DNA of 64,000 nt from a phage: assembly GCA_014686905.1 (NCBI GenBank), contig GCA_014686905.1_4093.1; one strand, 5' to 3'. Position 1 is the first letter of the stretch. Every line of letters begins with the position of its first letter. Made by a program: the position numbers and the translations under genes. Positions 3,431 to 16,948 of the stretch are shown piece by piece. The notes beneath the pieces were generated by a model. That model had not been told where the DNA came from, ran no database searches, and was given only the letters and a program-made list of their open reading frames with translations.

Positions 3431-5170
3431 ATGAGTTGGAAACGACATATGACAGTGGGAAGGTCTAAACTATCGACCATCCCAAATCAGTCCAGTAATA
3501 GCAATAAATCAACAGGAACGAAAACAAATTTCGCTTCCTATCTTCCTGTTGTATATAATGGATTGGCAAATCGTACTGAGCGTTATAGTCAGTATGAGCA
3601 AATGGACCAAGATCCTGAAATTAGAACTGCATTGAATATAATTGCTGACTTTTGTACTCAAAGTACTGAAGATTTTGGTTTACCATATAAAATCAAATAT
3701 AAAGATGATATTGGTGATACTGAAGTAACGACTATTGAAGATCGTTTAGATGCATGGACTGAACAAAATGATTTTAAAACACGAATGTATGAAATTGTGC
3801 GTGGTCTTCTGAAATATGGTGATCAATTTTTCATTCGAGATCCAGAAACATTCGATTGGTATTGGGTAAGTCCCAAAAATGTTGAGCAAGTATTTGTTAA
3901 CGAAGCCACTGGTAAAACACCAGTAATTTATTATATACGTGACGTATCATTAAATTTGAAAGATAAAGTTTTTAGTAACCTTCAAGTAGGATTTGATAAA
4001 ACCGCTTATCCAGGAGCTATTCCAACAACAATGGGTGGTGGTGGTTCAGTAGCTGCTGGTGGTGCATCTGGTTTTACAAGTCAAGGAAATACGGCTGACC
4101 CATTCAGTACTAACGGTCAATTAGACGTTATTCCTGTTGGTGCAGAACACGTAATTCATCTAACACTAAATACAGGACAAGATGGGGTATGGCCTTTTGG
4201 TACTAGTATACTTGAGGACGTATTTAAAGTCTATAAGCAAAAAGAACTTCTGGAAGATAGTATCATAATTTATCGTGTACAACGTGCACCTGAGCGTCGT
4301 GTATTTAAAATTGATGTTGGTGATATGCAAGCACACCAAGCGATGGCTTATGTTGAAAGATTTAAAAATGAAATCCACCAGCGTAGAATACCTTCAAACA
4401 AAGGTGGAAGTACTTCACTAATGGATGCAGCGTATAATCCATTAAGCATTTTAGAAGACTACTTTTTCCCACAAACTTCTGAAGGTCGTGGTTCAGATGT
4501 TCAAACATTACCAGGCGGTGATAACTTAGGACAAATTGATGACTTACGTTATTTCAATAATAAATTGATTCGTGGTCTTCAAATACCAGCTTCATATCTA
4601 CCACAAGGTCCAGATGATGGTGGTGTTTCATTATTTGGTGATGGTGCTACACAAGCTATGGCAAGTGAATTGCGATTCAATAATCAATGTATGCGTTATC
4701 AACGTTTAGTTGCAAAACATTTTGATGCTGAATTCAAAAGATTTATGGTTAAAAATGGATATAACATTAGTACTTCATCTTTTGAAGTTATTATGAATCC
4801 ACCTATTAACTTAGCTTCTTATCGTAAAGCTGAACTAGATGCTAAACTAATTAATACATATCTTCCTCTTAATGACTTGCCTTATATGGCAAAACAAACA
4901 ATTCTTGAAAAAATGGGCTTTTCTAAAGCTGATATTGTTAAGAATGAACAAATGTGGTTACAAGAGAATCCACAAGATGGTTCCCAACCTTCTGGTGGTG
5001 AAGAAGATTCCGCAGGATTGCAGTCTGTTGGCATTGATGCTCCAAATGATCCTGGAATGGATCTTGGTATTGATGGAGAAGGTAATTTGGAAAGTGCTGA
5101 TGCCGAATACCAAGAGCAACAGAGTGGAAGTGGTGGTTTCGACCCTAATAATTTAGGCAATTCTTTTTAA
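3431..5170 (+). CDS. 20: portal vertex protein (T4 gp20-like)
   Basis: Central region IIYRVQRAPERRV...TLPGGDN...DLRYF matches the T4 gp20 portal as recalled; RBS AAGGA; position ahead of prohead-core/protease/scaffold/MCP genes. Confidence 0.85.
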   Translation: MSWKRHMTVGRSKLSTIPNQSSNSNKSTGTKTNFASYLPVVYNGLANRTERYSQYEQMDQDPEIRTALNIIADFCTQSTEDFGLPYKIKYKDDIGDTEVTTIEDRLDAWTEQNDFKTRMYEIVRGLLKYGDQFFIRDPETFDWYWVSPKNVEQVFVNEATGKTPVIYYIRDVSLNLKDKVFSNLQVGFDKTAYPGAIPTTMGGGGSVAAGGASGFTSQGNTADPFSTNGQLDVIPVGAEHVIHLTLNTGQDGVWPFGTSILEDVFKVYKQKELLEDSIIIYRVQRAPERRVFKIDVGDMQAHQAMAYVERFKNEIHQRRIPSNKGGSTSLMDAAYNPLSILEDYFFPQTSEGRGSDVQTLPGGDNLGQIDDLRYFNNKLIRGLQIPASYLPQGPDDGGVSLFGDGATQAMASELRFNNQCMRYQRLVAKHFDAEFKRFMVKNGYNISTSSFEVIMNPPINLASYRKAELDAKLINTYLPLNDLPYMAKQTILEKMGFSKADIVKNEQMWLQENPQDGSQPSGGEEDSAGLQSVGIDAPNDPGMDLGIDGEGNLESADAEYQEQQSGSGGFDPNNLGNSF

Positions 5171-5192
5171 ACATAAATAACAATGTATAAGA

Positions 5193-5220
5193 ATGAGGGT
5201 TTATTTTTACCCTCATTTAT
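5193..5220 (+). terminator. hairpin ATGAGGGT-loop-ACCCTCAT after the portal gene
   Basis: Inverted repeat with a T-rich loop; weak T tail. Confidence 0.35.
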
Positions 5221-5243
5221 AATGCATATTTCAAGGAGATCAA

Positions 5244-5471
5244 ATGTTAAAGGACATCTTTGAATCTAGCAGTGATTCAATGTACGACCCTGAAGATGAT
5301 CAGAACGTATATAAAATTACTGATTCCAGAAAACCGAAACTAACATTACAAGTATTAAACAACTTAAGAAAGTACCGTGAATTTAAAGCACATGAAGAAC
5401 AACGCCGCAAAAATGTGGTTGCTGTTGTTTATGCCGCTGCACCAACAGGTGACGGTTCTGGGTTAATGTAA
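5244..5471 (+). CDS. small prohead core protein (gp67-like by position, 75 aa)
   Basis: RBS AAGGAG; position between portal and protease as in the T4 20-67-68-21-22-23 order; no sequence-level confirmation. Confidence 0.4.
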   Translation: MLKDIFESSSDSMYDPEDDQNVYKITDSRKPKLTLQVLNNLRKYREFKAHEEQRRKNVVAVVYAAAPTGDGSGLM

Positions 5472-5520
5472 ACCGAAAATCGCACTTTTTAAAGCTTTTA
5501 AAAAAGGCGATTTTATTCAG

Positions 5521-5539
5521 TACTAAATAATATCATACT
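5521..5539 (+). promoter_or_regulatory. conserved late-promoter/leader element copy A (TACTAAATAATATCATACT)
   Basis: Near-identical to the elements at 8285-8303 and 20975-20990 (minus strand); upstream of the acidic prohead-core gene. Confidence 0.5.
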
Positions 5540-5572
5540 TTATACGAATGTAATATATCTATGGAGGATATA

Positions 5573-6421
5573 ATGGCGAATTTAAAACTACTACAAGAAG
5601 CAATTGCGGCGTTTGCAAATGGCGAACAAGATATTGCTGATAAAAAAATGCGTAAGTATTTCGTTGAGCAAGCTCAAGAAATTAACAAACAACTAGAAGA
5701 AAGCATGGAAGATGAAGACGACGATGAAGATTGTGAAGTCGAAGTTAAAGTCAAAGATGAAGAAAAGCTTGACGAAGATTTTGATGTACAACCAGACGAA
5801 GGTCTAAATGCTGAAATCGAATACACCCTTGGTGAAGAAGATGAAAGTGCAGAAGAAGAAGTTGAATTCTCTGCTGATGCAGATGGTGACGGTGAAGACG
5901 ATGTTGACGTTGAAGTGAAAGCTGATGCTGATGTTCCTTCCGAAGACCAATGGGAATCAATCCAAGATGCTTTCCGTGGCCTACAACAAATGTTTGATGA
6001 AATCGGTGACGGTGAAGTTGATCTAGATTCTGAAGAAGAAGTAGAAGATAGCGAAGAAGAAGTTGGTGTTGACGGTGACGACGAATTTGCTGATGTTGAA
6101 TTCGGCGATGAAAAATTCGGTGAATCCTTCAAACTAGAAAAAGTTGCTCCAGTTGATAAGAAAGAAAAAGCTGGCACTCATTCCAAATCTCCAGTAGCAC
6201 CAGAAGCTAAATCTCCAGTAGCAGGAGCAGAGCCAGTTAAATTCGCTAAGAAAACTGACCAAGCCCCACTACTAGACCTAGATGATAAATCTGTTCTACC
6301 AAAAGATAGCCTAGATCTTGGTAAAAATGCTCGCGGTGAAATGAAAGATGTTAAAGCACCAAAAACTACTGCATCTAATTCTAAATCACCACTAAGCAAA
6401 GCACAACCTAAACTAAAATAA
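5573..6421 (+). CDS. highly acidic prohead core/scaffold-like protein (gp68-like by position); ORF could start at 5561
   Basis: GGAGG 5 nt before the ATG at 5573; long Asp/Glu-rich low-complexity region; synteny with T4 head genes. Confidence 0.5.
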   Translation: MANLKLLQEAIAAFANGEQDIADKKMRKYFVEQAQEINKQLEESMEDEDDDEDCEVEVKVKDEEKLDEDFDVQPDEGLNAEIEYTLGEEDESAEEEVEFSADADGDGEDDVDVEVKADADVPSEDQWESIQDAFRGLQQMFDEIGDGEVDLDSEEEVEDSEEEVGVDGDDEFADVEFGDEKFGESFKLEKVAPVDKKEKAGTHSKSPVAPEAKSPVAGAEPVKFAKKTDQAPLLDLDDKSVLPKDSLDLGKNARGEMKDVKAPKTTASNSKSPLSKAQPKLK

Positions 6422-6441
6422 ATATCTGAAAGGAGATCATT

Positions 6442-7065
6442 ATGAGTAGTATGATTCGTGAATGGTCTTCATTCAATGATTCTAAAGTTGTTTTGGAACA
6501 TCGTGATAATGGATTTGGTGGGCGTGACTGCTATCTTCGTGGTATTGCTATTCAAGCCGACCAACGAAATTTGAACGAGAGAATTTACCCTTTATCTGAA
6601 ATTACAAGGGCAGTAAATAACATGAACCAGCGTTTAGCTAAAGGTGAAAGCATTCTTGTTGAATGTGACCATCCAGAAACACTAACTATTAACCTAGACC
6701 GTGTAGCAGCAATGATTACTAAGGTTTGGATGGAAGGTGCTAATGGTATGGCAGAAATCAAACTACTTGATACTGCACATGGTCAGAATATCCGTAAAAT
6801 GCTAGAGGCTGGTGTAAAACTTGGTGTAAGTTCTCGCGGTTCCGGTAACGTTGATTATAATGGAATAGTTTCTGATTTTGAAATTATCACTATTGATATT
6901 GTTGCTCAACCTAGTGCTCCAGAAGCATACCCAACAGCGGTATTTGAATCTCTGATGAGTAAGTACGGATCACCTTGTAATAGTTCTAAAAAAATCACTG
7001 AATCTAAAAAAGTAAATAATTTAGATTCTGAAATATACGATTTTTTCAAGAAATTAAAAGGTTAA
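6442..7065 (+). CDS. 21: prohead protease (T4 gp21-like)
   Basis: Motifs NERIYPLSEITRAV and GVSSRGSGNV resemble T4 gp21 (NKRLYP..., GVSSRGLG); length 207 aa vs about 212 in T4; RBS AAAGGAG. Confidence 0.85.
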   Translation: MSSMIREWSSFNDSKVVLEHRDNGFGGRDCYLRGIAIQADQRNLNERIYPLSEITRAVNNMNQRLAKGESILVECDHPETLTINLDRVAAMITKVWMEGANGMAEIKLLDTAHGQNIRKMLEAGVKLGVSSRGSGNVDYNGIVSDFEIITIDIVAQPSAPEAYPTAVFESLMSKYGSPCNSSKKITESKKVNNLDSEIYDFFKKLKG

Positions 7066-7076
7066 CATTTTAAAAA

Positions 7077-7084
7077 TATAAATA
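7077..7084 (+). promoter_or_regulatory. T4-late-type promoter core TATAAATA upstream of the scaffold gene
   Basis: Exact TATAAATA 48 nt upstream of the ATG at 7132. Confidence 0.5.
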
Positions 7085-7107
7085 TCTGTATGTTGAAGTA
7101 CAGATAT
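7082..7107 (+). other. hairpin ATATCTGTA-N8-TACAGATAT in the scaffold-gene leader
   Basis: Perfect 9-bp inverted repeat overlapping the late promoter; no U-run after it. Confidence 0.4.
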
Positions 7108-7131
7108 TTCAGTACTTAAAGGAGAGAACGA

Positions 7132-8247
7132 ATGTCTAAATTAGAAAAGCTTCTAAAAGAATCATCTCTTTCTGATGAGGCAAAACAGCTAATTCAGGAA
7201 GCATGGAATGAAGAAAAGAATACACTAGCCGCAGAGATGCGTGAAGAAATGAAAGGCCGTTATCAGCAAGATTTGGCTGAACTAACCGAAGGTTTGAACA
7301 CGATGGTTACTCAAGTCATTGCCGAAGAAATGGGTGCTGTATATGAAGAGAAAAAACGTCTCGTTGAAGATCGTGTAACTCTACGTAAAACACTAAGCAA
7401 TTTCTCTGCGTTTTCAAACTCTGTTTTGGCTGAAGAAGTTAAACAAATGCGTAAAGAACGTAAGCATCTTCATGAATGCATGGGTAAATTCGTTAATTTT
7501 TCTAACGGTATCCTAGCAGAAGAGCTAAAAGAATTCCACACTGAAAAACGCCAACTAGTAGAAACTCGCGTTAAACTACTTGCTGAAGGTTCACGTCAAA
7601 TTGCTGAAGCTCGTAATAACTTCATCAAACGTACATCTGAAAGTGCTGCTAAATATATTGCAGAAACCACTCAGAAGAATCTATATGCGTTGAAACAAGA
7701 TCTAGTGGAAGCAAAACAAAATATGTTTGGTCGTAAAATCTTTGAAGCATTTGCTCAAGAGTTTAATGTCAAACAATTTAATGAAAACTCATTGCTACGT
7801 TCCCTAACTGAATCAATTAAATCTAAAGAAGATGAAATTGCTCAAGTTAAGCAAGAACTACATGAAACTGCTAATGCCGTTAAAGCTGCTAAAACCAAAC
7901 TACGTATTATGGAAGATGCACAAGCACGTAATGCGATTATGTCTGAACTAGTAAAACCACTAACTGCACAGCAAAAACAAATTATGGAATCCCTTCTAGC
8001 TACTTCACCTACTGAAAAGCTTAAAGAAGATTTCAGCAAGTACCATAAGTCAGTACTTAACGGTACTAAAGTAAATGAATCTGCTACCACTCGTCAAGCA
8101 GTTCAGTCTTCCGCTAAGAAAACTCTTGCAGAAGGTAAAGTAATCACTGGCAACCGTCAGGCTATTGTTGAAAGCGAAGAAATGACCGCTGACGATATGG
8201 CATTCCTAAAAGAACTAGATGTTCTTTCAGGTATCAATAAAAAATAA
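7132..8247 (+). CDS. 22: prohead scaffolding core protein (gp22-like)
   Basis: Coiled-coil-type E/K/Q/A-rich sequence; sits between protease and MCP; RBS AAAGGAGAG. Confidence 0.7.
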   Translation: MSKLEKLLKESSLSDEAKQLIQEAWNEEKNTLAAEMREEMKGRYQQDLAELTEGLNTMVTQVIAEEMGAVYEEKKRLVEDRVTLRKTLSNFSAFSNSVLAEEVKQMRKERKHLHECMGKFVNFSNGILAEELKEFHTEKRQLVETRVKLLAEGSRQIAEARNNFIKRTSESAAKYIAETTQKNLYALKQDLVEAKQNMFGRKIFEAFAQEFNVKQFNENSLLRSLTESIKSKEDEIAQVKQELHETANAVKAAKTKLRIMEDAQARNAIMSELVKPLTAQQKQIMESLLATSPTEKLKEDFSKYHKSVLNGTKVNESATTRQAVQSSAKKTLAEGKVITGNRQAIVESEEMTADDMAFLKELDVLSGINKK

Positions 8248-8284
8248 ACATTTTAAAGCATTTTAATAATCAAATTTTTCAGTT

Positions 8285-8303
8285 CTATAAATAATATCAT
8301 ACT
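8285..8303 (+). promoter_or_regulatory. late promoter TATAAATA (8286-8293) within conserved leader element copy B
   Basis: CTATAAATAATATCATACT about 40 nt upstream of the MCP start; same element at 5521 and 20975 (minus strand). Confidence 0.6.
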
Positions 8304-8338
8304 GAAAAACGAATATAACATCTTTAAGGAGATATATA

Positions 8339-9514
8339 ATGTCACAACTACTAAATGAATCCAAATGGGTAGCAGTAAAAGAGAAACTAGTTGAAGGTCT
8401 ACAGGGTACTCGTAAGTCTGTAATGGAAACTGTTCTTGATAACCATCGTAAAGTTATGCTAACTGAATCCGCAACTTCTGGTGCAACTACCGCTGGTAAC
8501 ATCGCTACTCTAAACAAAGTGATTCTACCAATTATGCGTCGTGTAATGCCAACCGTTATTGCTAACGAAATCATCGGTGTTCAACCTATGACTGGTCCAG
8601 TTGGTCAGATCCACACCCTACGTGTACAATATGCTGATAACGCACCTGGTGTAATCGCTGGTGAAGAAATGCTTTCTCCATACAAAATCGCTAAATCTTA
8701 CTCTGGTGATCTAAATGCGGATAATAGCAACCCACAAGCTGCTCCTACTAGCCAACTAGAAGGTACTATGGGTCGTCGCGTTAACATCCGTATTCTACGT
8801 GAAACTGTTGAAGCGAAATCTCGTCGTCTATCTGCACGTTGGACTGTTGAATCTGCACAAGATGCACAATCCCAACATGGTGTTGACGTTGAAGCAGAAC
8901 TAATGGCTGCAATCGCTCAAGAAGTTACCGTAGAAATCGACCAAGAGCTACTAAGCCGTCTACGTGCACTACCTGGTGCTGCTGCTGTAACTTATGACCA
9001 ATCTAAAGTTACTGGTGTTGCAACCTTCGTTGGTGATGAGCACGCTGCTCTAGCAACTCTAATTAACCGTCAAGCAAACGAAGTTGCTCGTCGTACTAAG
9101 CGTGGTGCTGCAAACTGGGCTGTTGTTTCCCCAACTGCACTAACCATTCTACAATCTGCTACTACTTCTAGCTTTGCACGTACCACTGAAGGTACTTTCG
9201 AAGCCCCAACTAACGTTAAGTTTGTAGGTACACTAAACAGCACTATGCGTATTTTTGTTGATACTTATGCAAGTGATGCAGAAGATATTCTAATTGGTTA
9301 TAAAGGTAATGCAGAAACTGATGCTGGTGTGTTCTATTGCCCATACATCCCACTAATGGCTTCCGGTACTGTAATGGACCCTAACACTGGGGAATTGGTC
9401 ACAACTTTCCTTACCAGGTATGGTTATGTACAATTGACTGATAGTACTTCTTCTCTTGGTAACGCTGCTGACTACTACAGCAAAATCGCTATCAAAAACG
9501 TTACTTTCATGTAA
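8339..9514 (+). CDS. 23: major capsid protein (T4 gp23 family)
   Basis: IIGVQPMTGPVGQIHTLRVQY, RETVEAKSRRLSARWTVESAQD and GYKGNAETDAGVFYCPYIPL align with T4 gp23 blocks (ICGVQPM..., VIEAKSRQLKA..., GYKGPNEMDAGIYYAPYV); 391 aa, shorter than T4 gp23. Confidence 0.9.
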   Translation: MSQLLNESKWVAVKEKLVEGLQGTRKSVMETVLDNHRKVMLTESATSGATTAGNIATLNKVILPIMRRVMPTVIANEIIGVQPMTGPVGQIHTLRVQYADNAPGVIAGEEMLSPYKIAKSYSGDLNADNSNPQAAPTSQLEGTMGRRVNIRILRETVEAKSRRLSARWTVESAQDAQSQHGVDVEAELMAAIAQEVTVEIDQELLSRLRALPGAAAVTYDQSKVTGVATFVGDEHAALATLINRQANEVARRTKRGAANWAVVSPTALTILQSATTSSFARTTEGTFEAPTNVKFVGTLNSTMRIFVDTYASDAEDILIGYKGNAETDAGVFYCPYIPLMASGTVMDPNTGELVTTFLTRYGYVQLTDSTSSLGNAADYYSKIAIKNVTFM

Positions 9515-9558
9515 TTGTAATCGATTTAAAAGATTTAATCAAGAAATTAAAAACAATA

Positions 9559-9588
9559 GGGACTCTTCGGAGTCCCTTTTCTTTTTTG
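9559..9588 (+). terminator. rho-independent terminator after the MCP gene
   Basis: GGGACTC-TTCG-GAGTCCC followed by TTTTCTTTTTT. Confidence 0.8.
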
Positions 9589-9590
9589 TG

Positions 9591-9619
9591 TTGACATGTC
9601 ACATTTTTTGTGTAATAAT
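9591..9619 (+). promoter_or_regulatory. sigma70-like promoter (TTGACA-N16/17-TAATAAT) for the inserted island
   Basis: TTGACA at 9591-9596 and a TA-rich -10 about 17 nt downstream. Confidence 0.45.
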
Positions 9620-9647
9620 ACGCGTACATTATAAATGAAGAAGAGAA

Positions 9648-10571
9648 ATGACAATGAATCCAAATGAAGAAAAATTTATTAATGCAGTGAATGAAAAGTA
9701 TGGTACTGGTGTGTATTTGTTTGATAAAATGGTATATATTAATGCTCATAAACAGGTTGAACTTTATTGTGTAGAAGGTTGTCATTATTTCAAAATCACT
9801 CCTATGCAAATAGTCCGACCTTCTGCAAAAGGATGTAACATTTGTCAAAAAAACACAGCATACACGACCGAAACGTTTATTGAAAAAGTTAAAACCATCC
9901 ATCCAACATTGTCATTTGAGAAAACTATCTACAAAAAACAAAGTGACAGTAATGGGCGAGTCATCGTTACATGTCATAATGATCCGAATGATGTGCATGA
10001 TTGGGAAGTATCAGCCGCAACATTATTAAAAGGAAAAACTAGTTGTGGAATATGTTCTGGTAAAGGTGGAAGAAGTACTGAACGTTTCATTGAACTTGTG
10101 TCGCCTATCCATAACCATAAGTATGATTATAGCTTGGTGGATTACAAGACTAGTGATGAACATGTGGATATTATTTGTCCTGAACATGGTGTCTTTAAAC
10201 AAATACCCAAATCTCATATGGCAGGAAGAGGATGTCCATCATGTGGTGAGTATGGTTATCAACCATCAAAACCTGGATATTTCTATGTTCAAAAACTAAC
10301 TAACAATGACAAGACGGTGTACAAGTATGGAATCACTGGTGATATGAAACGCCGTGTAAACGAACAAAGTCGCAATTCTGAGTTCGAGCATGAAGTACTT
10401 GTAGAACGCTACTTTGAAGATGGCAATCAACCATTACTGTTGGAAAAGTTCATAAAGAAATACATTGAAAGTGGTGTTGTAAGTACTGAAGAGTTACCGT
10501 CAGGATTTACTGAAACATTTGATGCTAAGTATCTTGAAAGTGTTTTAGAAATTGTAAATACTTTTAAGTAA
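9648..10571 (+). CDS. protein with three tandem zinc-ribbon repeats and a C-terminal T5orf172 (GIY-YIG-related) domain; homing-endonuclease-like
   Basis: Three roughly 65-aa repeats each ending C..HG.F....G.GC..C; C-terminus GYFYVQKL...VYKYGITGDMKRRVNEQ fits the T5orf172/MUG113 pattern. Confidence 0.6.
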   Translation: MTMNPNEEKFINAVNEKYGTGVYLFDKMVYINAHKQVELYCVEGCHYFKITPMQIVRPSAKGCNICQKNTAYTTETFIEKVKTIHPTLSFEKTIYKKQSDSNGRVIVTCHNDPNDVHDWEVSAATLLKGKTSCGICSGKGGRSTERFIELVSPIHNHKYDYSLVDYKTSDEHVDIICPEHGVFKQIPKSHMAGRGCPSCGEYGYQPSKPGYFYVQKLTNNDKTVYKYGITGDMKRRVNEQSRNSEFEHEVLVERYFEDGNQPLLLEKFIKKYIESGVVSTEELPSGFTETFDAKYLESVLEIVNTFK

Positions 10572-10594
10572 ACAATCTAAAGGAGTTGACACGG

Positions 10595-10945
10595 ATGTTA
10601 ACTGTATACAAATTTAACAAAGAAGAGTACTTAAAGAGTCAGTACTCAAATATAGAAATAAATGTTCCTTATGGTACGTTAGTTGGATATGATGAAGCCA
10701 CTGAAACATTGTATTATAATGATGATAGATTGGATTATAGTTTAGATTCTTTTATAGAAGATATACTAAACACACATACTGAAGATATGTTATATGAAGA
10801 ATACATAGATCATTATAGGGAACGTATGTCACAATTACACTCAGACGCTCCAGTACTAAACATTACACAAGAACCTTCTGAATTTCAGCCCCATAATCCT
10901 TTTCAACGTTTAATAGATATTGGTTTGAAATTCACTATTAGTTGA
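10595..10945 (+). CDS. hypothetical protein (116 aa; ORF opens at 10586 with TTG)
   Basis: AAGGAG 9 nt before the ATG at 10595. Confidence 0.45.
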   Translation: MLTVYKFNKEEYLKSQYSNIEINVPYGTLVGYDEATETLYYNDDRLDYSLDSFIEDILNTHTEDMLYEEYIDHYRERMSQLHSDAPVLNITQEPSEFQPHNPFQRLIDIGLKFTIS

Positions 10946-10984
10946 TAGATAAATATCTCCATATTAATGATGGAGATTGAATCT

Positions 10985-11293
10985 ATGTCACAGATATGTT
11001 ATGTTATAATAAATTCTGCATGGCCTGAGTATGTTAAAATTGGTTTTACTTCAAAATCAGAAATGACAGAACGTCTAAGAACGTATCAGACTGCTACACC
11101 ATTTCGTGACTTTGAAGTATATCATGAAGTTCATTTTGATGATGCACGTTTGGCTGAAAAAGAAATACATAAAAGGCTTAAGCAGATGAATGCAACTAGA
11201 CAACCCAATACCGAGTGGTTTAAAATGTCTAAAAAGATAGCAGCCAACATTATTGATTCCGTATGGGATGATATGGATAACGACTTGCTATAG
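10985..11293 (+). CDS. stand-alone T5orf172 (GIY-YIG-like) domain protein; ORF may start at 10967
   Basis: CYVIINSAWPEYVKIGFTSKSEMTERLRTY...EWF fits the T5orf172/MUG113 pattern; second copy of this domain within 1 kb. Confidence 0.55.
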   Translation: MSQICYVIINSAWPEYVKIGFTSKSEMTERLRTYQTATPFRDFEVYHEVHFDDARLAEKEIHKRLKQMNATRQPNTEWFKMSKKIAANIIDSVWDDMDNDLL

Positions 11294-11333
11294 GAATAAA
11301 TATAGTATATATTAATCATAAAGGGATTTATAC

Positions 11334-12944
11334 ATGAGCATAAGTTTTAATAACCCATTGGATACAATGACCAGTACTGGTGCTAATGGATCTTTAGAAC
11401 TAATAGTGCTTGGTGGTACACCAACTAACCCAAGACCTATTCGTTTTAACTCGTCATCAGTTATCATACCAGTACAAACTTTACCAACTGGTGAACAAGG
11501 TGCAATGGTCTTTGATAGAAACGAGTTAGTTTTGAAGTATCATAACGGTACTAGTTGGATTGCAGTATACGATACTGATACCATTTTAGAACCAATTAGA
11601 ATTTCACTTGATGAAGTAAATAGAAAACTAAATTTAAAAGTAGAAAGTGTAACTTATAGTAGTAGTACTGTTCCTAGTGCAAGTATTAGTGGAACAAACT
11701 TAAACATTGTATTCCCTACTGCTTCTAGTGGTGGTTCTGGTCCAACTGGTCTTTACACTTCACTTAAACCTGGTGCTATTACACAATATTCATTGACTTC
11801 TGGTCAATCTGTTGCTAGTATACGTGAACAAATGTCAGGACAATCGAATGGACAAAGTGGGAGAAACGGTTCACAAGGTGCTCCGTGGAAAACGTCTGAC
11901 GGTTGGTGTTTTGCTGATGGTATGTGGTGGCAATGGGAGGGGGAAAATGGTACAATTACCAAACAAGTACCAAACCTTAACCAAAACGCGTACTTAAAAG
12001 GGATATCCACATCAGGTGTAACTAAAACTGATAGTGTTATTGGTAGTAGCGGTAATATTAGCGGCACAGTATTAAGTGTTGCCCAATTACCATCACACTC
12101 ATTTAGTTTTAGTGGGACCACAGGGGCTGCTGGTCGTCATGGTCATAGTCAAGCACTAAAAGGTATGGACCGTAGTGGTCTAAATGCGTTAACTTCAAGT
12201 AATGATAACGGTATACCAACTGTAATCAATAACATTAACGAAGCACCAGACCACATTCACTCATTTAGTGGAAACACTAACACACTTGGTGGAAACCAAC
12301 CACACTATCATGGTATTAGTAACATTGATGTGGAACACTTTAACGTTGCATATCTATATAACATTGCTGAATCTAACGTCGCATTGAGTGAAAAAGTTGC
12401 AAACACTCGTTATGTACTAAAAACTGGTGATACAATGACTGGTTCATTGACTATTGCAAACAGTGCGTCAATTAAGTCAAATGATACATCATTAGTTCTA
12501 TATTTCCGTAACGCAAGCGGTGGTGAGCGTGCGGCAGTGTATCATAACTCTTCAAATAATACATTGAGATTACGTTCCGGTGGAGCAGAAGTTACTGTAA
12601 ACTCTTCTGGTACGTTAGCTGCTCCATCATTAACTGTTTCTAACAACTCAGCTACTGTTGGTGGTAAAAATATTGTTCGTTCAATTAACGGTACTGCTGC
12701 TGATGCTAGTGGCAACGTTACTTTGCAAATTAGTACTAATAACGTACAAAGTATTCGTTTGAGTGCACGTATTGAAACAAGTAAAATACCTGATTCTTCA
12801 TGGACATATACACCAGAAGGTGCATTTATGGATGGCGTATGGATTTCTGTTAATGGTAGTTCAGGCACTCACTTAGAACGAATTAGTTATCGCTATGTTC
12901 AAATGCAAATAAATGGTAACTGGGAAACAGTACGTCAACAATAA
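11334..12944 (+). CDS. tail fibre protein with collar-like domain and HxH motifs
   Basis: Ser/Thr/Gly/Asn-rich; LPSHSFSF collar-like motif; HGHS, HIHS and HYHG as in T4 fibre tips; followed by an assembly-chaperone-like gene. Confidence 0.75.
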   Translation: MSISFNNPLDTMTSTGANGSLELIVLGGTPTNPRPIRFNSSSVIIPVQTLPTGEQGAMVFDRNELVLKYHNGTSWIAVYDTDTILEPIRISLDEVNRKLNLKVESVTYSSSTVPSASISGTNLNIVFPTASSGGSGPTGLYTSLKPGAITQYSLTSGQSVASIREQMSGQSNGQSGRNGSQGAPWKTSDGWCFADGMWWQWEGENGTITKQVPNLNQNAYLKGISTSGVTKTDSVIGSSGNISGTVLSVAQLPSHSFSFSGTTGAAGRHGHSQALKGMDRSGLNALTSSNDNGIPTVINNINEAPDHIHSFSGNTNTLGGNQPHYHGISNIDVEHFNVAYLYNIAESNVALSEKVANTRYVLKTGDTMTGSLTIANSASIKSNDTSLVLYFRNASGGERAAVYHNSSNNTLRLRSGGAEVTVNSSGTLAAPSLTVSNNSATVGGKNIVRSINGTAADASGNVTLQISTNNVQSIRLSARIETSKIPDSSWTYTPEGAFMDGVWISVNGSSGTHLERISYRYVQMQINGNWETVRQQ

Positions 12945-12954
12945 GGAATGTGTA

Positions 12955-13470
12955 ATGCAACTAACAAATTTTAAGATGTATGAAAAAGAAGGTGGTAATC
13001 CTAATTCTTTGTATATGATGTCCGATGAAGGTATGGATTGGTATGAATCTCGTGAATTGTTTGACATTAATAAAGCAAAATTTATGTATGATACTAATGG
13101 TTTAATTGTTTCAGCATCATATAACATTTATGATCTAGTACCTTTAGGTTTTAGTGTTTCTGAAATTGAATATGATGGTGATATTAACAAACTTTATGGT
13201 ATGGTTTACGATGGAAATACTATTCATGACTATATTGAAACTAAAGAAGAAAAAATTGAACGCCTAAAAAATGAATTATCTAATTTGAAATACATTGCAA
13301 TTCAAGAACTTGGACACTTAAAAACTGCTATGGATCTTGAGTTAGCAACTGATGAAGAAGCTGTATTGTTTGTAAAATTGAAAGATTATGTAACGCAATT
13401 GAATTCAATCAAACCAGCAGACATGATCAAGAAAACATTTTCATTTCCAGTTAAACCGGAAAAAAAATGA
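12955..13470 (+). CDS. tail fibre assembly/chaperone-like protein (ORF opens at 12913)
   Basis: AAGGAA before the ATG at 12955; size and position right after the fibre gene; weak motif support only. Confidence 0.5.
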   Translation: MQLTNFKMYEKEGGNPNSLYMMSDEGMDWYESRELFDINKAKFMYDTNGLIVSASYNIYDLVPLGFSVSEIEYDGDINKLYGMVYDGNTIHDYIETKEEKIERLKNELSNLKYIAIQELGHLKTAMDLELATDEEAVLFVKLKDYVTQLNSIKPADMIKKTFSFPVKPEKK

Positions 13471-13500
13471 GACAACACGTAAAGACGTGATACAATTAAG

Positions 13501-13536
13501 TCATCTCACCGATTGTGGTGAGGTGACATTTTTTTG
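13501..13536 (+). terminator. rho-independent terminator after the tail-fibre module
   Basis: TCATCTCACC-loop-GGTGAGGTGA followed by T7. Confidence 0.7.
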
Positions 13537-13560
13537 AAAACACACATGGAGAAATACAAA

Positions 13561-13863
13561 ATGGCTAAATCTAAAAAAGAAGTTAAAGTTGAAATTCGTG
13601 ATCTAAACGATGAACAACGTAAACGTCTCGGCGATGCACTTAACAACATTGTTGTACAACTAACTTTCATTGATGATACCAAAGCATCCTTATCTGATTT
13701 TGTTTCTAGTGTTTCTGATGAACTTGGTATCGATGCATCTGATATCAAACAAGCTGCACAACGTATGTACAAAGGTGATTACTTTGACAAACAAAATAAA
13801 CTCGATAATATCGAAACTATTCTTAGTGTTACTAATAATCTTCCACAAGCAGATGATTACTAA
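13561..13863 (+). CDS. hypothetical basic protein (100 aa; ORF opens at 13534)
   Basis: GGAGA before the ATG at 13561. Confidence 0.45.
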   Translation: MAKSKKEVKVEIRDLNDEQRKRLGDALNNIVVQLTFIDDTKASLSDFVSSVSDELGIDASDIKQAAQRMYKGDYFDKQNKLDNIETILSVTNNLPQADDY

Positions 13864-13942: not shown

Positions 13943-16900
13943 ATGTATATCGATGCTTATATGGAACGTAAACGTACTGGTGATATTCTTCATGTAGTTG
14001 AACGTAAGAATGGTAAACGTATTCTACGCGAATTAGATCCAGTATATGAATATTATGTTGAATCCCCACAAGGAACACATAAAACTGTTTATGGTACAAT
14101 GGCTAAACATTTTGAGTTTCAAACTCAAGCTCAAATGAATAAAAGTGTAGAGCAACACAAAAGTGAAGGTCTACGTATTTTTGAAAGTGATTGTAACATT
14201 ACATTTAAAACATTAGCTAAAGAATATATGGGAAAAGGTTCACCCGATTTGAACATCGTGTTCTTCGATATCGAGACTGATTTCCATAAGAAATTTGGTT
14301 ATGCTCCACCATCAGACCCGTTTAACCGAGTAACCGCTATTTCTTTATATCAATCGTGGACTGGAAAGGATTATGTACTTACTTTACCACCTGCTGATAT
14401 GGAAATTTATGAAGCACAAGATATTGTTCGCCAACTAAATGAAGAAACAAACGATCCTAACAGTACTGTAATTTTATATACAGACGAAAAGGAAATGTTT
14501 ATGGAATTCTTTAGTTTAATTGATGATTCTGATGTTATTTCAGGATGGAATAGTGAATTCTTTGATATTCCATATATGATCAATCGAACTAAAAAAATCT
14601 TCAATGAAGCAACAACTGCTCGTTGGTGTTTATGGAATAAAAAACCAAATTCACGTGAAGCAGACAACTTTGGTAAAACTGTTCAAACATATGATCTGGT
14701 AGGTCGCGTCCATCTTGATTATTTGGCTTTGTATAAGAAACATGCTGGTCAAGTTGAACAATCTTATAAACTAGATTATATTGCTGAAAAAGTAACTAAA
14801 GAAAATAAAGTATCATATGAAGGTTCATTGGATAAACTTTACAGAGAGGATTACATTACTTTCTTGCGTTATTCTAAACAGGATAGTATTCTTCTTAAAA
14901 AGATTGATGCTAAATGTGACTATATCAACCTACACAATCGACTTGCACACAAAGAATGTGTACTTATCAGCACAACAATGGGTTCAGTAGCACTAATCGA
15001 CACTGCTATTATCAACTTAGCACATACTCGTGGTGAAGTTGTTTTTAACAAAGCACCTAAAGATGATCTTGAGTTTGATCCAGAAATGGAATATTATGGT
15101 GAAGATGGTGAAGATGAAGATGAGAAAATTAGTGCAAAAGCAGCAGGTGCATGGGTACAAGATCCAGTACTAGGACTTGTAAGTGACCTTGGGTGTACTG
15201 ACTTTAACTCTCTTTACCCTACTGTTCTACGTACTTTGGGTATGAGTACTGAATGTATTCTTGGTCAATTACGTCAAGATTACACCGATGCGTATCTTGC
15301 AGCTAAAATCCAAGAACAGAAGAACAAATCTAAATCTAAATCATTTGAACCAGATTGGACTGCGGCATGGCATGGTTTATTTGCTGCTGTTGAATTTACA
15401 ATGGTTCATGAAAAGTCAGAAGAAACATTGATTGTTGATTTAGAAGATGGGAGTTCTTTTAAAGCAACGGGCAAAGAGCTATATGATATTATTTTTGCAG
15501 AAGATAGTACTATTGTACTTAGTGCAAACGGAACACTTTTTGATAAGTCTAAGTCTGGTGTAATTCCTGACATTCTAACTCAATGGTATTCTGAACGTAA
15601 AGCACAGCAAAAAATGGTCATTGACTATAAACATATGTATACTGATGGTTGGGAGTTTAATGGCTATGAAAAAGTCGAACCACTACTATCAAACTATACC
15701 CCTGGTACAATGTTTAGAACTAATATTCATGATAATGATCCTGTATACTTACTTCGTAAAGAAATTGGTAAAGGACAATGGGATGAAGTTGCTAAGTTGA
15801 TTGTAGAAAATGGTTTAGTACTAAAAGATGGTCGTATTTTCTGTCCTAAAGAAGAAAAAGATTACTTCAAACAACGTAGTGCTTTCTGGAAACAGAACCA
15901 ACAGATTCGTAAGATTCTTCTAAACAGTCTATATGGTGCACTATTGAACAAAGGTTCTCGTTTCTTTGACAAACGTTTAGGTCAATCCGTAACATTAACT
16001 GGACGTTCTATGACCAAACATATGGCAAGTCGTATCAATGAGATTACTACTGGTGTATATAATCACCAAGGTGGTTCAGTAATTTATGGTGATACTGACT
16101 CAGTTTACTTTAGTGTAACTCATTATCTGAAAGAACAAGGTATTCCATATAATCTATCTAAAGAAGAGATTGTTGATATGTATATTAAAATTGGTGAAGA
16201 AGTTGGTGAATCTTTCCCATCATTTATGCATGAGATGTTCAACACTGGTATTGAAAAAGGTAAGATTGTTGGTGCAGACCTTGAGATGGTTGGTTCGCGT
16301 GGCCTATTCTTGAAGAAAAAACGTTATGCAATTCTGAAGTACTGGGAAGATGGGTTCCGTAAAGATATTGATGGTAAACCAGGTGAAATCAAAGCGATGG
16401 GTCTTGAAATTAAACGCTCAGACACGCCAAAATACATCCAGAACTTCCTAGAAGAGACTCTAATCGCATTACTGGTAGGTGAGAGTGAACAACAGCTAAA
16501 ACAGCGTGTACGTGAGTTTAAGGACGTATTTAAGGATATGCCTGTACATGAAAAAGGTTCACCAAAAACTGTAAAAAACTACACTAATTTAGAGGCTGAA
16601 TATCAGCTAACTGGTAAGTGTAAAGTTGGTCACGTTCTTGCTGGTATCCAATGGAACCGTCTACGTGAAGTTTATGATGATAAATCTGTACCAGAAGTAA
16701 CGGATGGAACAAAAGTAATTGTCTGTAACTTAAAAGATAATCCTATGGGAATTAAAGCTGTTGGTTATCCAATTGACTGTGTTGAGTATCTTCCAGAATG
16801 GTTCTTGGAACTACCATTTGATACTGAAAAAATGGAAGAGATTGTTCTAACTAAAAAATTAGAGAATATTTTTGGTATTTTGGATATGGATATTGGTATT

Positions 16901-16948
16901 CATGAAAAAAGTACTGCGTCAGTAAACAATGGATTCTTCACTTGGTAA
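13943..16948 (+). CDS. 43: family-B DNA polymerase (T4 gp43-like)
   Basis: Exo I FFDIETD; DFNSLYP (region II); KILLNSLYG (region III); YGDTDS (motif C); 1001 aa. Confidence 0.92.
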   Translation: MYIDAYMERKRTGDILHVVERKNGKRILRELDPVYEYYVESPQGTHKTVYGTMAKHFEFQTQAQMNKSVEQHKSEGLRIFESDCNITFKTLAKEYMGKGSPDLNIVFFDIETDFHKKFGYAPPSDPFNRVTAISLYQSWTGKDYVLTLPPADMEIYEAQDIVRQLNEETNDPNSTVILYTDEKEMFMEFFSLIDDSDVISGWNSEFFDIPYMINRTKKIFNEATTARWCLWNKKPNSREADNFGKTVQTYDLVGRVHLDYLALYKKHAGQVEQSYKLDYIAEKVTKENKVSYEGSLDKLYREDYITFLRYSKQDSILLKKIDAKCDYINLHNRLAHKECVLISTTMGSVALIDTAIINLAHTRGEVVFNKAPKDDLEFDPEMEYYGEDGEDEDEKISAKAAGAWVQDPVLGLVSDLGCTDFNSLYPTVLRTLGMSTECILGQLRQDYTDAYLAAKIQEQKNKSKSKSFEPDWTAAWHGLFAAVEFTMVHEKSEETLIVDLEDGSSFKATGKELYDIIFAEDSTIVLSANGTLFDKSKSGVIPDILTQWYSERKAQQKMVIDYKHMYTDGWEFNGYEKVEPLLSNYTPGTMFRTNIHDNDPVYLLRKEIGKGQWDEVAKLIVENGLVLKDGRIFCPKEEKDYFKQRSAFWKQNQQIRKILLNSLYGALLNKGSRFFDKRLGQSVTLTGRSMTKHMASRINEITTGVYNHQGGSVIYGDTDSVYFSVTHYLKEQGIPYNLSKEEIVDMYIKIGEEVGESFPSFMHEMFNTGIEKGKIVGADLEMVGSRGLFLKKKRYAILKYWEDGFRKDIDGKPGEIKAMGLEIKRSDTPKYIQNFLEETLIALLVGESEQQLKQRVREFKDVFKDMPVHEKGSPKTVKNYTNLEAEYQLTGKCKVGHVLAGIQWNRLREVYDDKSVPEVTDGTKVIVCNLKDNPMGIKAVGYPIDCVEYLPEWFLELPFDTEKMEEIVLTKKLENIFGILDMDIGIHEKSTASVNNGFFTW

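Follow-up and report, generated by a model that had tools for sequence, protein, structure and literature searches.

The window, a 64,000-nucleotide stretch, derives from an Asteriusvirus jumbo coliphage and matches G17, Sharanji, and slurp01 with 100% identity throughout the 5.2 kb that were searched. Three plus-strand ORFs (genes 1, 2, and 3) lie 3' of a promoter-like site, between the major capsid gene and the tail-fibre gene (Table 1). The elements described in a sequence-only reading of this DNA (a terminator behind the capsid gene, a promoter, three genes, zinc-ribbon repeats, and T5orf172 domains) are all present at the coordinates listed. Its description of the surroundings as a contiguous virion block was generous, as the DNA polymerase gene follows downstream after just two genes, those for the fibre and its assembly.

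Table 1. Features of the capsid-fibre junction (window coordinates)
Feature	Position	Strand	Details
Major capsid gene, gp23-like	8339-9514		Pfam Gp23, E 1.3e-89
Cluster of mainly synonymous variation, 3' end of capsid gene	9265..9470	+	just upstream of the insertion point
Intrinsic terminator of the capsid gene	9558..9590	+	hairpin 9558-9577 plus T-run; left border of the variable segment
Presence/absence segment (putative mobile cassette)	9588..10594	+	promoter, gene 1, and 23-nt tail with the gene 2 ribosome-binding site; alignment gaps versus empty-site PBECO4
Sigma-70-type promoter-like site	9591..9619	+	TTGACA(9591)-17 nt-AATAAT(9619), upstream TG
Gene 1, probable free-standing T5orf172-type homing endonuclease gene	9648..10571	+	307 aa; phrog_681 'endonuclease', E 7.6e-63; patchy in close relatives
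Zinc-ribbon (treble-clef) repeat 1, aa 5-73	9660..9866	+	putative ligands C41, C45 or H46, C63, C66; Pfam DUF4379 at residues 29-68
Zinc-ribbon repeat 2, aa 74-143	9867..10076	+	putative ligands C109, H110 or H117, C133, C136; F77, C109, C133, C136 invariant
Zinc-ribbon repeat 3, aa 144-205	10077..10262	+	putative ligands C177, H180, C196, C199; Pfam DUF723 at residues 160-200; invariant cysteines
Gene 1 C-terminal T5orf172/GIY-YIG-like nuclease domain, aa 206-307	10263..10568	+	
Gene 2, resident small acidic protein	10595..10945	+	116 aa, pI 4.4; phrog_15724 (function unknown)
Divergent recombination patch	10753..11663	+	about 7% nucleotide divergence in genomes otherwise about 99-100% identical; begins 180 bp downstream of gene 1
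Gene 3, resident stand-alone T5orf172/GIY-YIG-like domain protein	10967..11293	+	108 aa

Signals and proteins of the junction

A terminator scan resolved the capsid-gene terminator as an 8-bp, GC-rich hairpin followed by a T-run. The hairpin is unchanged in five Asteriusvirus genomes, and the similarity between occupied and empty sites stops directly 3' of the T-run. The adjoining promoter-like site agrees with the sigma-70 consensus at 11 of 12 positions, the best match in 8200-13600. Such matches are not enriched overall (24 found, 22 expected), and we treat the site as a predicted, near-consensus promoter on the strength of its consensus match. All occupied Asteriusvirus alleles have equivalent sites scoring 11-12 of 12 and empty sites reach 8 of 12 at most; within Asteriusvirus, gene 1 and a near-consensus promoter move together. 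In other genera, the terminator itself contains a promoter-like site, whether the junction is occupied or empty. No terminator-like site occurs on the plus strand between genes 1, 2, and 3. The T4-type late promoter motif TATAAATA was also considered and set aside, as it is not enriched in the window (seven found, about ten expected). Its only suggestive positions are upstream of the scaffold and capsid genes.

The gene 1 protein contains three repeats with a period of 63-70 aa. The same residues recur, invariant, in each of them (F10/F77/F147; C41/C109/C177; C63-x2-C66, C133-x2-C136, and C196-x2-C199), and an AlphaFold model (pLDDT 86.8) displays a unit of helix, beta-hairpin, and short helix three times: H5-18, E37-41, E46-50, and H52-56 in repeat 1; H74-84, E104-109, E117-122, and H123-128 in repeat 2; and H144-154, E173-177, and E181-185 in repeat 3. 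Aligned in pairs, the repeat sequences resemble each other weakly (z 1.7-4.2), which suggests that they are ancient, and we therefore base their recognition on the recurring invariant residues and the model instead of on pairwise alignment. Pfam matches gene 1 with DUF4379 (E 2.8e-5, just over the cut-off) and DUF723, and its CapR family is matched by ten of 29 gene 1 homologues as well as by the Turkey5 and SE_PL alleles. The profiles and the three structural repeats together identify zinc-finger modules of the CapR/DUF723/DUF4379 type.

The best structural matches of the C-terminal domain are GIY-YIG nucleases, and the nuclease fold expected by the sequence-only reading is thus borne out for gene 1. 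Pfam T5orf172 matches the protein with E 0.009 and 16.9 bits, under the curated cut-off of 20. Among the 29 homologues, 18 match T5orf172 and 17 match MUG113, and the phrog_681 profile recognizes gene 3 as well as gene 1. The assignment to the T5orf172/GIY-YIG superfamily accordingly holds at the level of fold and profile, not at Pfam's curated threshold. Residues Y213, K226, G228, R235, R236, E266, and E289 are invariant in the 29 homologues and occupy the expected secondary-structure positions in the model; R235/R236 and E289 are putative catalytic residues, judged by their apparent equivalence to the GIY-YIG active site. Across 963 phage records, the gene 1 family turns up at 1483 places, and a single genome may hold as many as 12 copies.

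The start codon of gene 2 is most likely ATG 10595 and not TTG 10586, a choice that gives the product the same length as in relatives. The protein has no Pfam, NCBIfam, or PADLOC match, and a homologue search returned close Asteriusvirus relatives only, with no domains; syntenic counterparts outside Asteriusvirus are 26-34% identical. A 32-nt conserved patch within the gene (10619-10650) was considered as a candidate target site; other 15-nt bins are equally invariant, and we regard it as a lead only.

The gene 3 protein has a GIY-YIG fold with the motif residues and appears from its sequence to be a minimal GIY-YIG-like domain without a DNA-binding module. In most homologues the start codon corresponds to ATG 10985, which is possibly the start in the window too. 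PADLOC matched it to the N-terminal, approximately 93-residue nuclease domain of the 212-aa PDC-S57 (E 1e-16) and weakly to PD-Lambda-1; we rejected assignment to these anti-phage defence systems, as the match reflects a shared domain and is not full-length. NCBIfam gave no match for any of proteins 1-3, and a PDB sequence search with the gene 1 and gene 3 family profiles gave chance matches or nothing. A profile-profile comparison of these two families was not significant (probability 1.9%) and, both alignments being shallow, neither backs nor excludes homology. None of the three genes has a paralogue elsewhere in the window.

Occupancy and recombination in related phages

We compared 26 related loci in which the sequence continues beyond the capsid gene. 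Distant IMG/VR relatives, whose capsid proteins are at most 72% identical, lack nearby homologues of gene 2, gene 3, and the fibre gene and are uninformative on the locus. A gene-1-like occupant is present in 11 of the 26, and one more, UE-S1, carries an unrelated nuclease-like DUF7487/MTES_1575 gene at the same site. The site is empty in PBECO4, fEgEco12, PHA46, Hallingskeid, and nine metagenomic loci. The spacing from the capsid gene to gene 2 is 114-182 nt at empty sites, 411 nt in GAP32, and 1080-1967 nt at the other ten sites with a gene-1-like occupant. Insert-less junctions, which the sequence-only reading had suggested looking for, hence exist for gene 1, which shows presence/absence polymorphism among close relatives at a single site adjoining a conserved gene. 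In GenBank, about 25 of 63 related records carry a gene 1 allele of at least 60% identity.

The occupants are diverse. Resident alleles are 33-100% identical to gene 1 of the window, those that replace it at the site being 33-93% identical, and alleles of 33%, 69%, and 100% identity sit next to capsid genes whose proteins are 98-100% identical. The E9.1 allele shares repeats 1-2 and the nuclease domain with the window and has a different repeat 3, a swapped module, its differences falling mainly at 10005-10260. The 121Q allele has one extra repeat and different repeats 1-2, with repeat 3 and the nuclease domain similar to those of the window. GAP32 retains a 77-aa remnant that matches residues 255-306.

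The borders of the presence/absence segment are identical across the surveyed loci. Its right-end sequence, TAAACAATCTAAAGGAGTTGACACGG, is common to all T5orf172-type occupants and stops at the gene 2 ATG. The ends at 9588 and 10594 have no terminal repeats, direct or inverted, and no target-site duplication, and a Pfam search found no transposase domain. We therefore rejected a transposon or insertion-sequence-like cassette.

All 26 loci contain gene 3, which in every case immediately precedes the fibre gene, with or without gene 1, and gene 2 is syntenic in 25. Their synteny spans phages of Escherichia, Salmonella, Klebsiella, Erwinia, Yersinia, and Cronobacter, and a gene 3 of at least 60% identity is found in 63 GenBank records. 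Purifying selection on gene 3 is strong (dN/dS 0.012-0.05), which together with its presence at every locus marks the gene as a resident core gene; it shows no presence/absence polymorphism across the 26 loci of the kind expected of a mobile homing endonuclease gene. By their distribution, genes 2 and 3 are core genes of this phage clade and lie outside the element. The sequence-only reading had itself named universal, syntenic presence in relatives as evidence against mobility, and for genes 2 and 3 this is what we found.

The flanks carry signs of recombination. ECO103 4-12-1 is nearly identical to the window over 5100-10752, with two mismatches in 8000-10752, and about 7% divergent from 10753, with 66 mismatches in 10753-11663. 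Gene 3 has a dS of 0.58-0.62, versus 0.086 for the capsid and fibre genes. This sharp downstream breakpoint lies past gene 1 and not at its edge, and gene 3 or ordinary recombination could equally be the cause. Upstream, 22 of 29 capsid-gene mismatches between the window and PBECO4 fall in 9265-9451, and differences over the whole capsid gene are 24 synonymous versus four non-synonymous. The carriers of a 365-aa allele, 121Q and vB_Ec-M-J, which represent two lineages, share one haplotype at 9395-9470. For the 307-aa allele, the upstream flank 9317-9587 is identical between the window and the empty-site fEgEco12, so the argument from co-conversion fails for this allele on the upstream side.

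Readings of the locus

We consider it likely that gene 1, with its promoter and short tail (9588-10594), is a free-standing T5orf172-type homing endonuclease gene in an intergenic hot spot that extends from the capsid terminator to the gene 2 start codon. By analogy with its relatives, gene 1 would encode a cleaving enzyme and would home. During co-infection with a cassette-less relative, the three zinc-ribbon modules would bind a long, asymmetric site at or near the empty junction, and the tethered C-terminal GIY-YIG-like domain would cut near the bound site. Repair of the break by recombination with the cassette-bearing genome would copy the cassette together with flanking stretches of the capsid gene and of gene 2/gene 3. 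An occupied genome, in which the flanks are approximately 1 kb apart, would be protected from self-cleavage, and the enzyme would acquire new targets when alleles exchange zinc-ribbon modules.

The sequence-only reading had instead taken the promoter and all three genes as a single mobile island that had entered between the capsid and fibre genes. The genes are indeed adjacent and on the same strand with no terminator-like site between them, two of the three encode T5orf172-type domains, and in the record of Klebsiella phage fENko-Kae01 the capsid and fibre proteins are marked 'identified with LC-MS/MS' and the homologues of genes 1-3 are not. Yet genes 2 and 3 are retained independently of gene 1, the indel borders at 9588 and 10594 leave both of them out, and gene 3, with a dN/dS as low as 0.012, is conserved across dozens of records. 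A three-gene island is therefore highly improbable. The homing-endonuclease-like character proposed for the island stands for gene 1 but not for the three genes as a unit, of which genes 2 and 3 are syntenic residents, and the mobile unit measures approximately 1 kb and not 1.7 kb. The interpretation given in the sequence-only reading is partly supported: gene 1 is probably a mobile, 'selfish' nuclease gene and the only one of the three, with genes 2 and 3 as fixed residents.

Patchiness could also arise if gene 1 were an ancestral resident, subject to repeated deletion and ordinary recombination without nuclease-driven mobility. The GAP32 remnant shows that loss happens, occupied sites are found in several genera, and the empty sites of PBECO4 and fEgEco12 keep a short stretch, AAATACACATA, that resembles the 5' leader of the occupied alleles; repeated loss could indeed be a large contributor to the patchy distribution. 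Such a history would have to accommodate dissimilar alleles in nearly identical capsid backgrounds, an unrelated gene in UE-S1, one 365-aa allele with its flanking haplotype in two lineages that differ elsewhere, and a multi-copy family scattered over unrelated phages, and we hold it to be very unlikely as the full explanation. Co-option of gene 1, which would no longer home and would serve as a DNA-binding regulator of the neighbouring late genes (in the manner of CapR or of I-TevI autorepression) or as an Odn-like nuclease against satellites or co-infecting phages, also strikes us as unlikely. As CapR and Odn illustrate, co-option of this domain set has happened on more than one occasion, and gene 1 is under purifying selection (dN/dS 0.07 versus the WPEC5 allele). 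Genes 2 and 3, and possibly the fibre gene, are probably transcribed from its strong predicted promoter too, because the gap to gene 2 is only 23 nt and the ribosome-binding site is shared. However, gene 1 is dispensable, being absent from close relatives; one site combines allele turnover with a decayed remnant, in keeping with the cycle of invasion and decay that a selfish gene goes through; and a free-standing homing endonuclease excludes the markers of a co-infecting phage in any case.

A role for gene 3 in the variability of the site is a rather doubtful addition: it may be a domesticated, universally kept minimal GIY-YIG nuclease that makes the capsid-fibre junction a programmed recombination hot spot, with the acidic, fast-evolving gene 2 product possibly acting as its specificity or inhibitor partner. 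If so, this would account for the approximately 7-fold excess of synonymous divergence in genes 2/3 over the flanks, for the repeated capture of different homing endonuclease genes here, and for easy exchange of the adjoining host-range (tail-fibre) module.

Known systems and implications

Gene 1 belongs to a family that has been described before; the finding is real, though an ordinary one. The T5orf172 homing endonuclease genes of ICP1 and other phages combine zinc-finger modules with a C-terminal T5orf172 domain, and a capsid gene was present in 31% of their neighbourhoods (Barth, Dunham & Seed 2023, PMC10448857). Like them, gene 1 has repeated CapR/DUF723/DUF4379-type modules followed by a C-terminal T5orf172 domain, is free-standing, and adjoins an essential gene (capsid genes are among theirs); it also shows domain shuffling between alleles and a position at boundaries of genetic exchange. 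Unlike the members of that survey, gene 1 resides in Asteriusvirus and related jumbo phages, has a divergent T5orf172 domain under the Pfam cut-off, and is known from sequence alone. In the accessible part of the supplementary files of PMC10448857, the names 121Q, PBECO4, slurp01, and G17 do not occur; GAP32 alone does, for a different locus.

Odn (ICP1 Gp88), an origin-directed T5orf172 nuclease with conserved catalytic-type Arg and Glu, has been shown to cleave double-stranded DNA (PMC8263062). It likewise joins a C-terminal T5orf172 domain to a DNA-binding domain, sequence-specific in Odn, but this is a RepA_N domain in an anti-satellite weapon, versus three zinc-ribbon repeats in gene 1. 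The zinc finger of CapR, from the Vibrio cholerae satellite PLE, binds DNA, as shown by gel-shift of the wild type versus a quadruple cysteine-to-serine mutant (PMC8096241). Its module (PF21817) is the Pfam family that gene 1 homologues have in common with it, and CapR is functionally linked to a capsid locus; in contrast to CapR, gene 1 retains an apparently intact nuclease domain. The closest solved folds to that domain are the eukaryotic structure-specific repair nucleases SLX1 and HIGLE, at 13-18% identity, a likeness of fold only. The GIY-YIG homing endonucleases of T4-like phages include I-TevI, whose nuclease domain is N-terminal, and the free-standing Seg proteins. Compared with these, gene 1 has the reverse order, with a C-terminal nuclease, other DNA-binding modules, and undetectable sequence similarity.

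These results leave the current understanding of the T5orf172 family unchanged and correct the size of the 'island' to about 1 kb of mobile DNA, not three genes. Where G17, Sharanji, and slurp01 are annotated with 'hypothetical protein', gene 1 can now be labelled 'T5orf172-type homing endonuclease' and gene 3 'GIY-YIG/T5orf172 domain protein'. A recombination hot spot adjoining a tail-fibre gene is of some practical interest, as these phages are therapy candidates. The Asteriusvirus series is a compact natural experiment, in which an empty site, at least five distinct occupant alleles, a module-swapped allele, another nuclease family, and a decayed remnant are found in backgrounds that are 97-100% identical. 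It lends itself to tracing how exchanges of zinc-ribbon modules redirect a T5orf172 endonuclease to new targets and how far co-conversion reaches into the capsid gene and towards the host-range gene.

Layout and variable segment of the capsid–fibre junction

Over the 5.2 kb around the locus, the window shows 100% identity with the Escherichia phages vB_EcoM_G17, Sharanji, and slurp01 and 96–98% with other Asteriusvirus jumbo phages, e.g., 121Q and PBECO4. Genes 1 to 3, which encode a zinc-ribbon and T5orf172-type protein, an acidic protein, and a second T5orf172 protein, lie between the capsid and tail fibre genes (see table). The gene 2 start chosen here yields 116 aa, the length found in all relatives. 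Upstream of the prohead protease gene, a 286-aa ORF (5561–6421) is extremely Asp/Glu-rich, and its homologues in relatives are annotated as virion structural proteins.

Features of the capsid–fibre region in the window, and occupants of the same site in related phages
Sequence	Feature	Coordinates	Strand	Remarks
Window	Prohead protease gene	6442–7065	+	
Window	Scaffold-like gene	7132–8247	+	
Window	Major capsid gene	8339–9514	+	gp23-like; directly before genes 1–3
Window	Capsid-gene terminator	9558–9590	+	8-bp GC-rich hairpin and T-run
Window	Gene 1	9648–10571	+	307 aa
Window	Gene 2	most likely from ATG 10595	+	AAGGAG ribosome-binding site ahead
Window	Gene 3	10967–11293	+	108 aa; start at equivalent of 10985 in most homologues
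Window	Tail fibre gene	11334–12944	+	
Window	Fibre assembly protein gene, then small ORF		+	between tail fibre and DNA polymerase genes
Window	DNA polymerase gene	13943–16948	+	
Turkey5	Occupant			406-aa CapR/DUF723/MUG113 protein, 35% identical to gene 1
SE_PL	Occupant			373-aa CapR protein and extra ORF
fENko-Kae01	Occupant			304-aa allele
UE-S1 (Escherichia phage)	Occupant	L008 1607–3265		552-aa protein, DUF7487 and weak REase_MTES_1575 match; no T5orf172 gene
GAP32 (Cronobacter phage)	Occupant GAP32_251	L010 3256–3489		77-aa ORF matching gene 1 residues 255–306 only, 40% identity

The features described in the sequence-only reading (terminator, promoter-like site, three genes, repeats, and domains) are real, as judged by terminator and promoter scanning, Pfam, homologue alignment, and structural modelling. 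Its proposal that the three genes form one mobile island did not survive comparison with relatives. PBECO4 and fEgEco12 are without gene 1 and have ~115–120 nt between the capsid-gene terminator and gene 2; the indel relative to PBECO4 comprises window positions 9588–10594 only, and genes 2 and 3 remain at such empty sites. In these alignments, the putative island is divided in two: a variable gene 1 and resident genes 2 and 3. The variable segment (the cassette) comprises a putative promoter, gene 1, and a short tail with the gene 2 ribosome-binding site. Its right end, TAAACAATCTAAAGGAGTTGACACGG, is common to all T5orf172-type occupants and terminates exactly at the gene 2 ATG. We looked for terminal repeats or duplications flanking 9588–10594 and found none.

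By consensus match, TTGACA-17-(TG)AATAAT at 9591–9619 ranks first among sigma-70-like sites in the region; promoter-like matches as a class are not enriched there. Within Asteriusvirus, this site matches the consensus at 11–12 of 12 positions in all occupied sites and at only 8 of 12 in the two empty sites, so the near-consensus putative promoter appears to travel with gene 1. Six other loci (Kae01, PHA46, Hallingskeid, SE_PL, Turkey5, and the metagenomic contig L017) have TTGACG, or TTGATG in Hallingskeid, in the terminator loop and TATAAT 17 nt on, past the T-run, which by consensus match places a promoter-like site inside the terminator. This arrangement, found in phages of other genera and in Escherichia phage Turkey5, is independent of occupancy. 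The T4 late-promoter-like motif TATAAATA precedes the starts of the scaffold-like and capsid genes by ~50 nt (7077–7084 and 8286–8293), and a one-off variant, TATAAATG, lies 11 nt upstream of gene 1 (9630–9637); TATAAATA is not enriched across the window.

Genes 2 and 3 as residents

We surveyed 26 loci that extend downstream of a capsid gene whose product is at least 85% identical, drawn from GenBank phages of Escherichia, Salmonella, Klebsiella, Erwinia, and Cronobacter and from IMG/VR contigs. All 26 carry gene 3 (66–100% aa identity) and 25 carry gene 2, and both are residents on this comparison; gene 1 has insert-less alleles (PBECO4 and fEgEco12), and 11 of the 26 loci carry a gene-1-like occupant. 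At 60% identity or more, gene 1 is found in ~25 GenBank records and gene 3 in 63; megablast of the region also returned 63, the overlap of the two sets not being established record by record.

Across genera, gene 3 is 66–80% identical, compared with ~30% for gene 2 (26–34% outside Asteriusvirus) and 47–60% for the fibre protein. With a dN/dS of 0.012–0.05, gene 3 is treated here as a resident core gene. It has no DNA-binding module, and it has a low probability of itself promoting recombination at the capsid–fibre junction. The candidate defence protein PDC-S57 has an N-terminal domain of ~93 residues that gene 3 matches (E 1e-16), and there is a weak match to PD-Lambda-1 as well; what they have in common is the nuclease domain and no more.

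The gene 2 product is small and acidic (pI 4.4), and no family was detected for it by Pfam, NCBIfam, PADLOC, or homologue search. Salmonella phage PHA46 has two short annotated ORFs (96 and 168 nt) in place of gene 2 (L006 7347–7602), and no gene 2 homologue was detected there. Its gene 3 is intact, and gene 2 may be disrupted. At the 5' end of gene 2, 32 nt (10619–10650) with the inverted repeat GAGTACT-N9-AGTACTC hardly vary among lineages of Asteriusvirus that have a gene 2 dS above 1. This stretch may serve as a recognition site or form an RNA structure; its conservation is not significant, as other 15-nt bins are equally invariant. The record of Klebsiella phage fENko-Kae01 carries the note "identified with LC-MS/MS" on the capsid and fibre proteins and not on homologues of genes 1–3, whose products are probably not virion proteins.

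Signs of genetic exchange around the cassette

ECO103 4-12-1 differs from the window by 2 mismatches in 8000–10752 and 66 in 10753–11663, then returns to ~99% identity. Its alternative 10753–11663 haplotype also occurs in PBECO4, E9.1, and UE-S1, and 121Q carries the window's haplotype only to ~11130. Comparison of the window with PBECO4 or ECO103 gives a dS of 0.58–0.62 for gene 3 and 0.36 for gene 2, against 0.086 for the capsid and fibre genes. Upstream of the cassette, 22 of the 29 capsid-gene mismatches with PBECO4 fall within 9265–9451. 121Q and vB_Ec-M-J, which carry a 365-aa gene 1 allele (69–70% identical to the window's, with one zinc-ribbon repeat more), share one haplotype at 9395–9470 yet differ elsewhere in the capsid gene, a pattern resembling co-conversion with the cassette. 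For the 307-aa allele the case is less strong, as the window's upstream flank is also that of fEgEco12, a phage with an empty site.

In the fibre region of WPEC5, Turkey5, and Hallingskeid (compared with window 12600–13470), the fibre gene is longer (1710–1722 nt) and no fibre-assembly gene is annotated separately. Similarity between WPEC5 and the window collapses from ~12,600 on, which suggests that the host-range module is also exchanged just downstream.

Gene 1 architecture, turnover, and the T5orf172 family

Invariant residues recur in gene 1 with a period of 63–70 aa (29 homologues; F10/F77/F147, C41/C109/C177, and three CxxC pairs). The AlphaFold model (pLDDT 86.8) has three units of helix, beta-hairpin, and short helix, followed by a beta-beta-alpha-beta-alpha-alpha domain (residues 210–305). 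Pfam assigns the family's repeats to DUF4379, DUF723, and CapR; the C-terminal domain matches T5orf172 below threshold in gene 1, and 18 of the 29 homologues match this family. The whole protein is covered by phrog_681 "endonuclease", and RefSeq annotates the homologues in 121Q as "endonuclease" and "GIY-YIG nuclease family protein".

Alleles differ by module. In repeats 1–2 and the nuclease domain, the E9.1 allele is the same as the window's; its repeat 3 is unrelated, with mismatches clustering at 10005–10260. The allele of 121Q has an additional repeat and different repeats 1–2, and its repeat 3 and nuclease domain are similar to the window's. Many distant metagenomic homologues share the zinc-ribbon part alone (58–65% query coverage) and have other C-terminal domains, some being named very-short-patch-repair endonuclease by JGI, which suggests that the DNA-binding array combines with several nuclease types.

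The T5orf172 homing endonuclease genes (HEGs) defined by Barth, Dunham & Seed 2023 (PMC10448857) have zinc fingers of the CapR, DUF723, or DUF4379 type in 87% of cases, often in several copies. They are free-standing, near essential genes (capsid genes in 31% of neighbourhoods), undergo domain swapping, and are located at boundaries of genetic exchange (PMC10448857). 121Q, PBECO4, slurp01, and G17 were not found in the supplementary files of that study, which include GAP32 at a different locus. Double-stranded DNA cleavage has been demonstrated for the T5orf172 protein Odn (Gp88) (PMC8263062), and DNA binding by the CapR zinc finger in gel-shift assays of the wild type beside a quadruple Cys-to-Ser mutant (PMC8096241).

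The occupant of UE-S1 belongs to a DUF7487/REase_MTES_1575 type, so a different nuclease family appears to exploit the same hot spot, and GAP32_251 is apparently the decayed remnant of an earlier occupant. The HEG life cycle predicts the states seen at the site: empty, occupied, replaced, and decaying. The homing-endonuclease interpretation of the island thus fails for genes 2 and 3, as residents, and holds for gene 1 on its architecture, presence/absence, and turnover; from this likeness we infer cleavage and homing. With exactly the architecture of the T5orf172 HEGs (PMC10448857), gene 1 adds a member to this published family.
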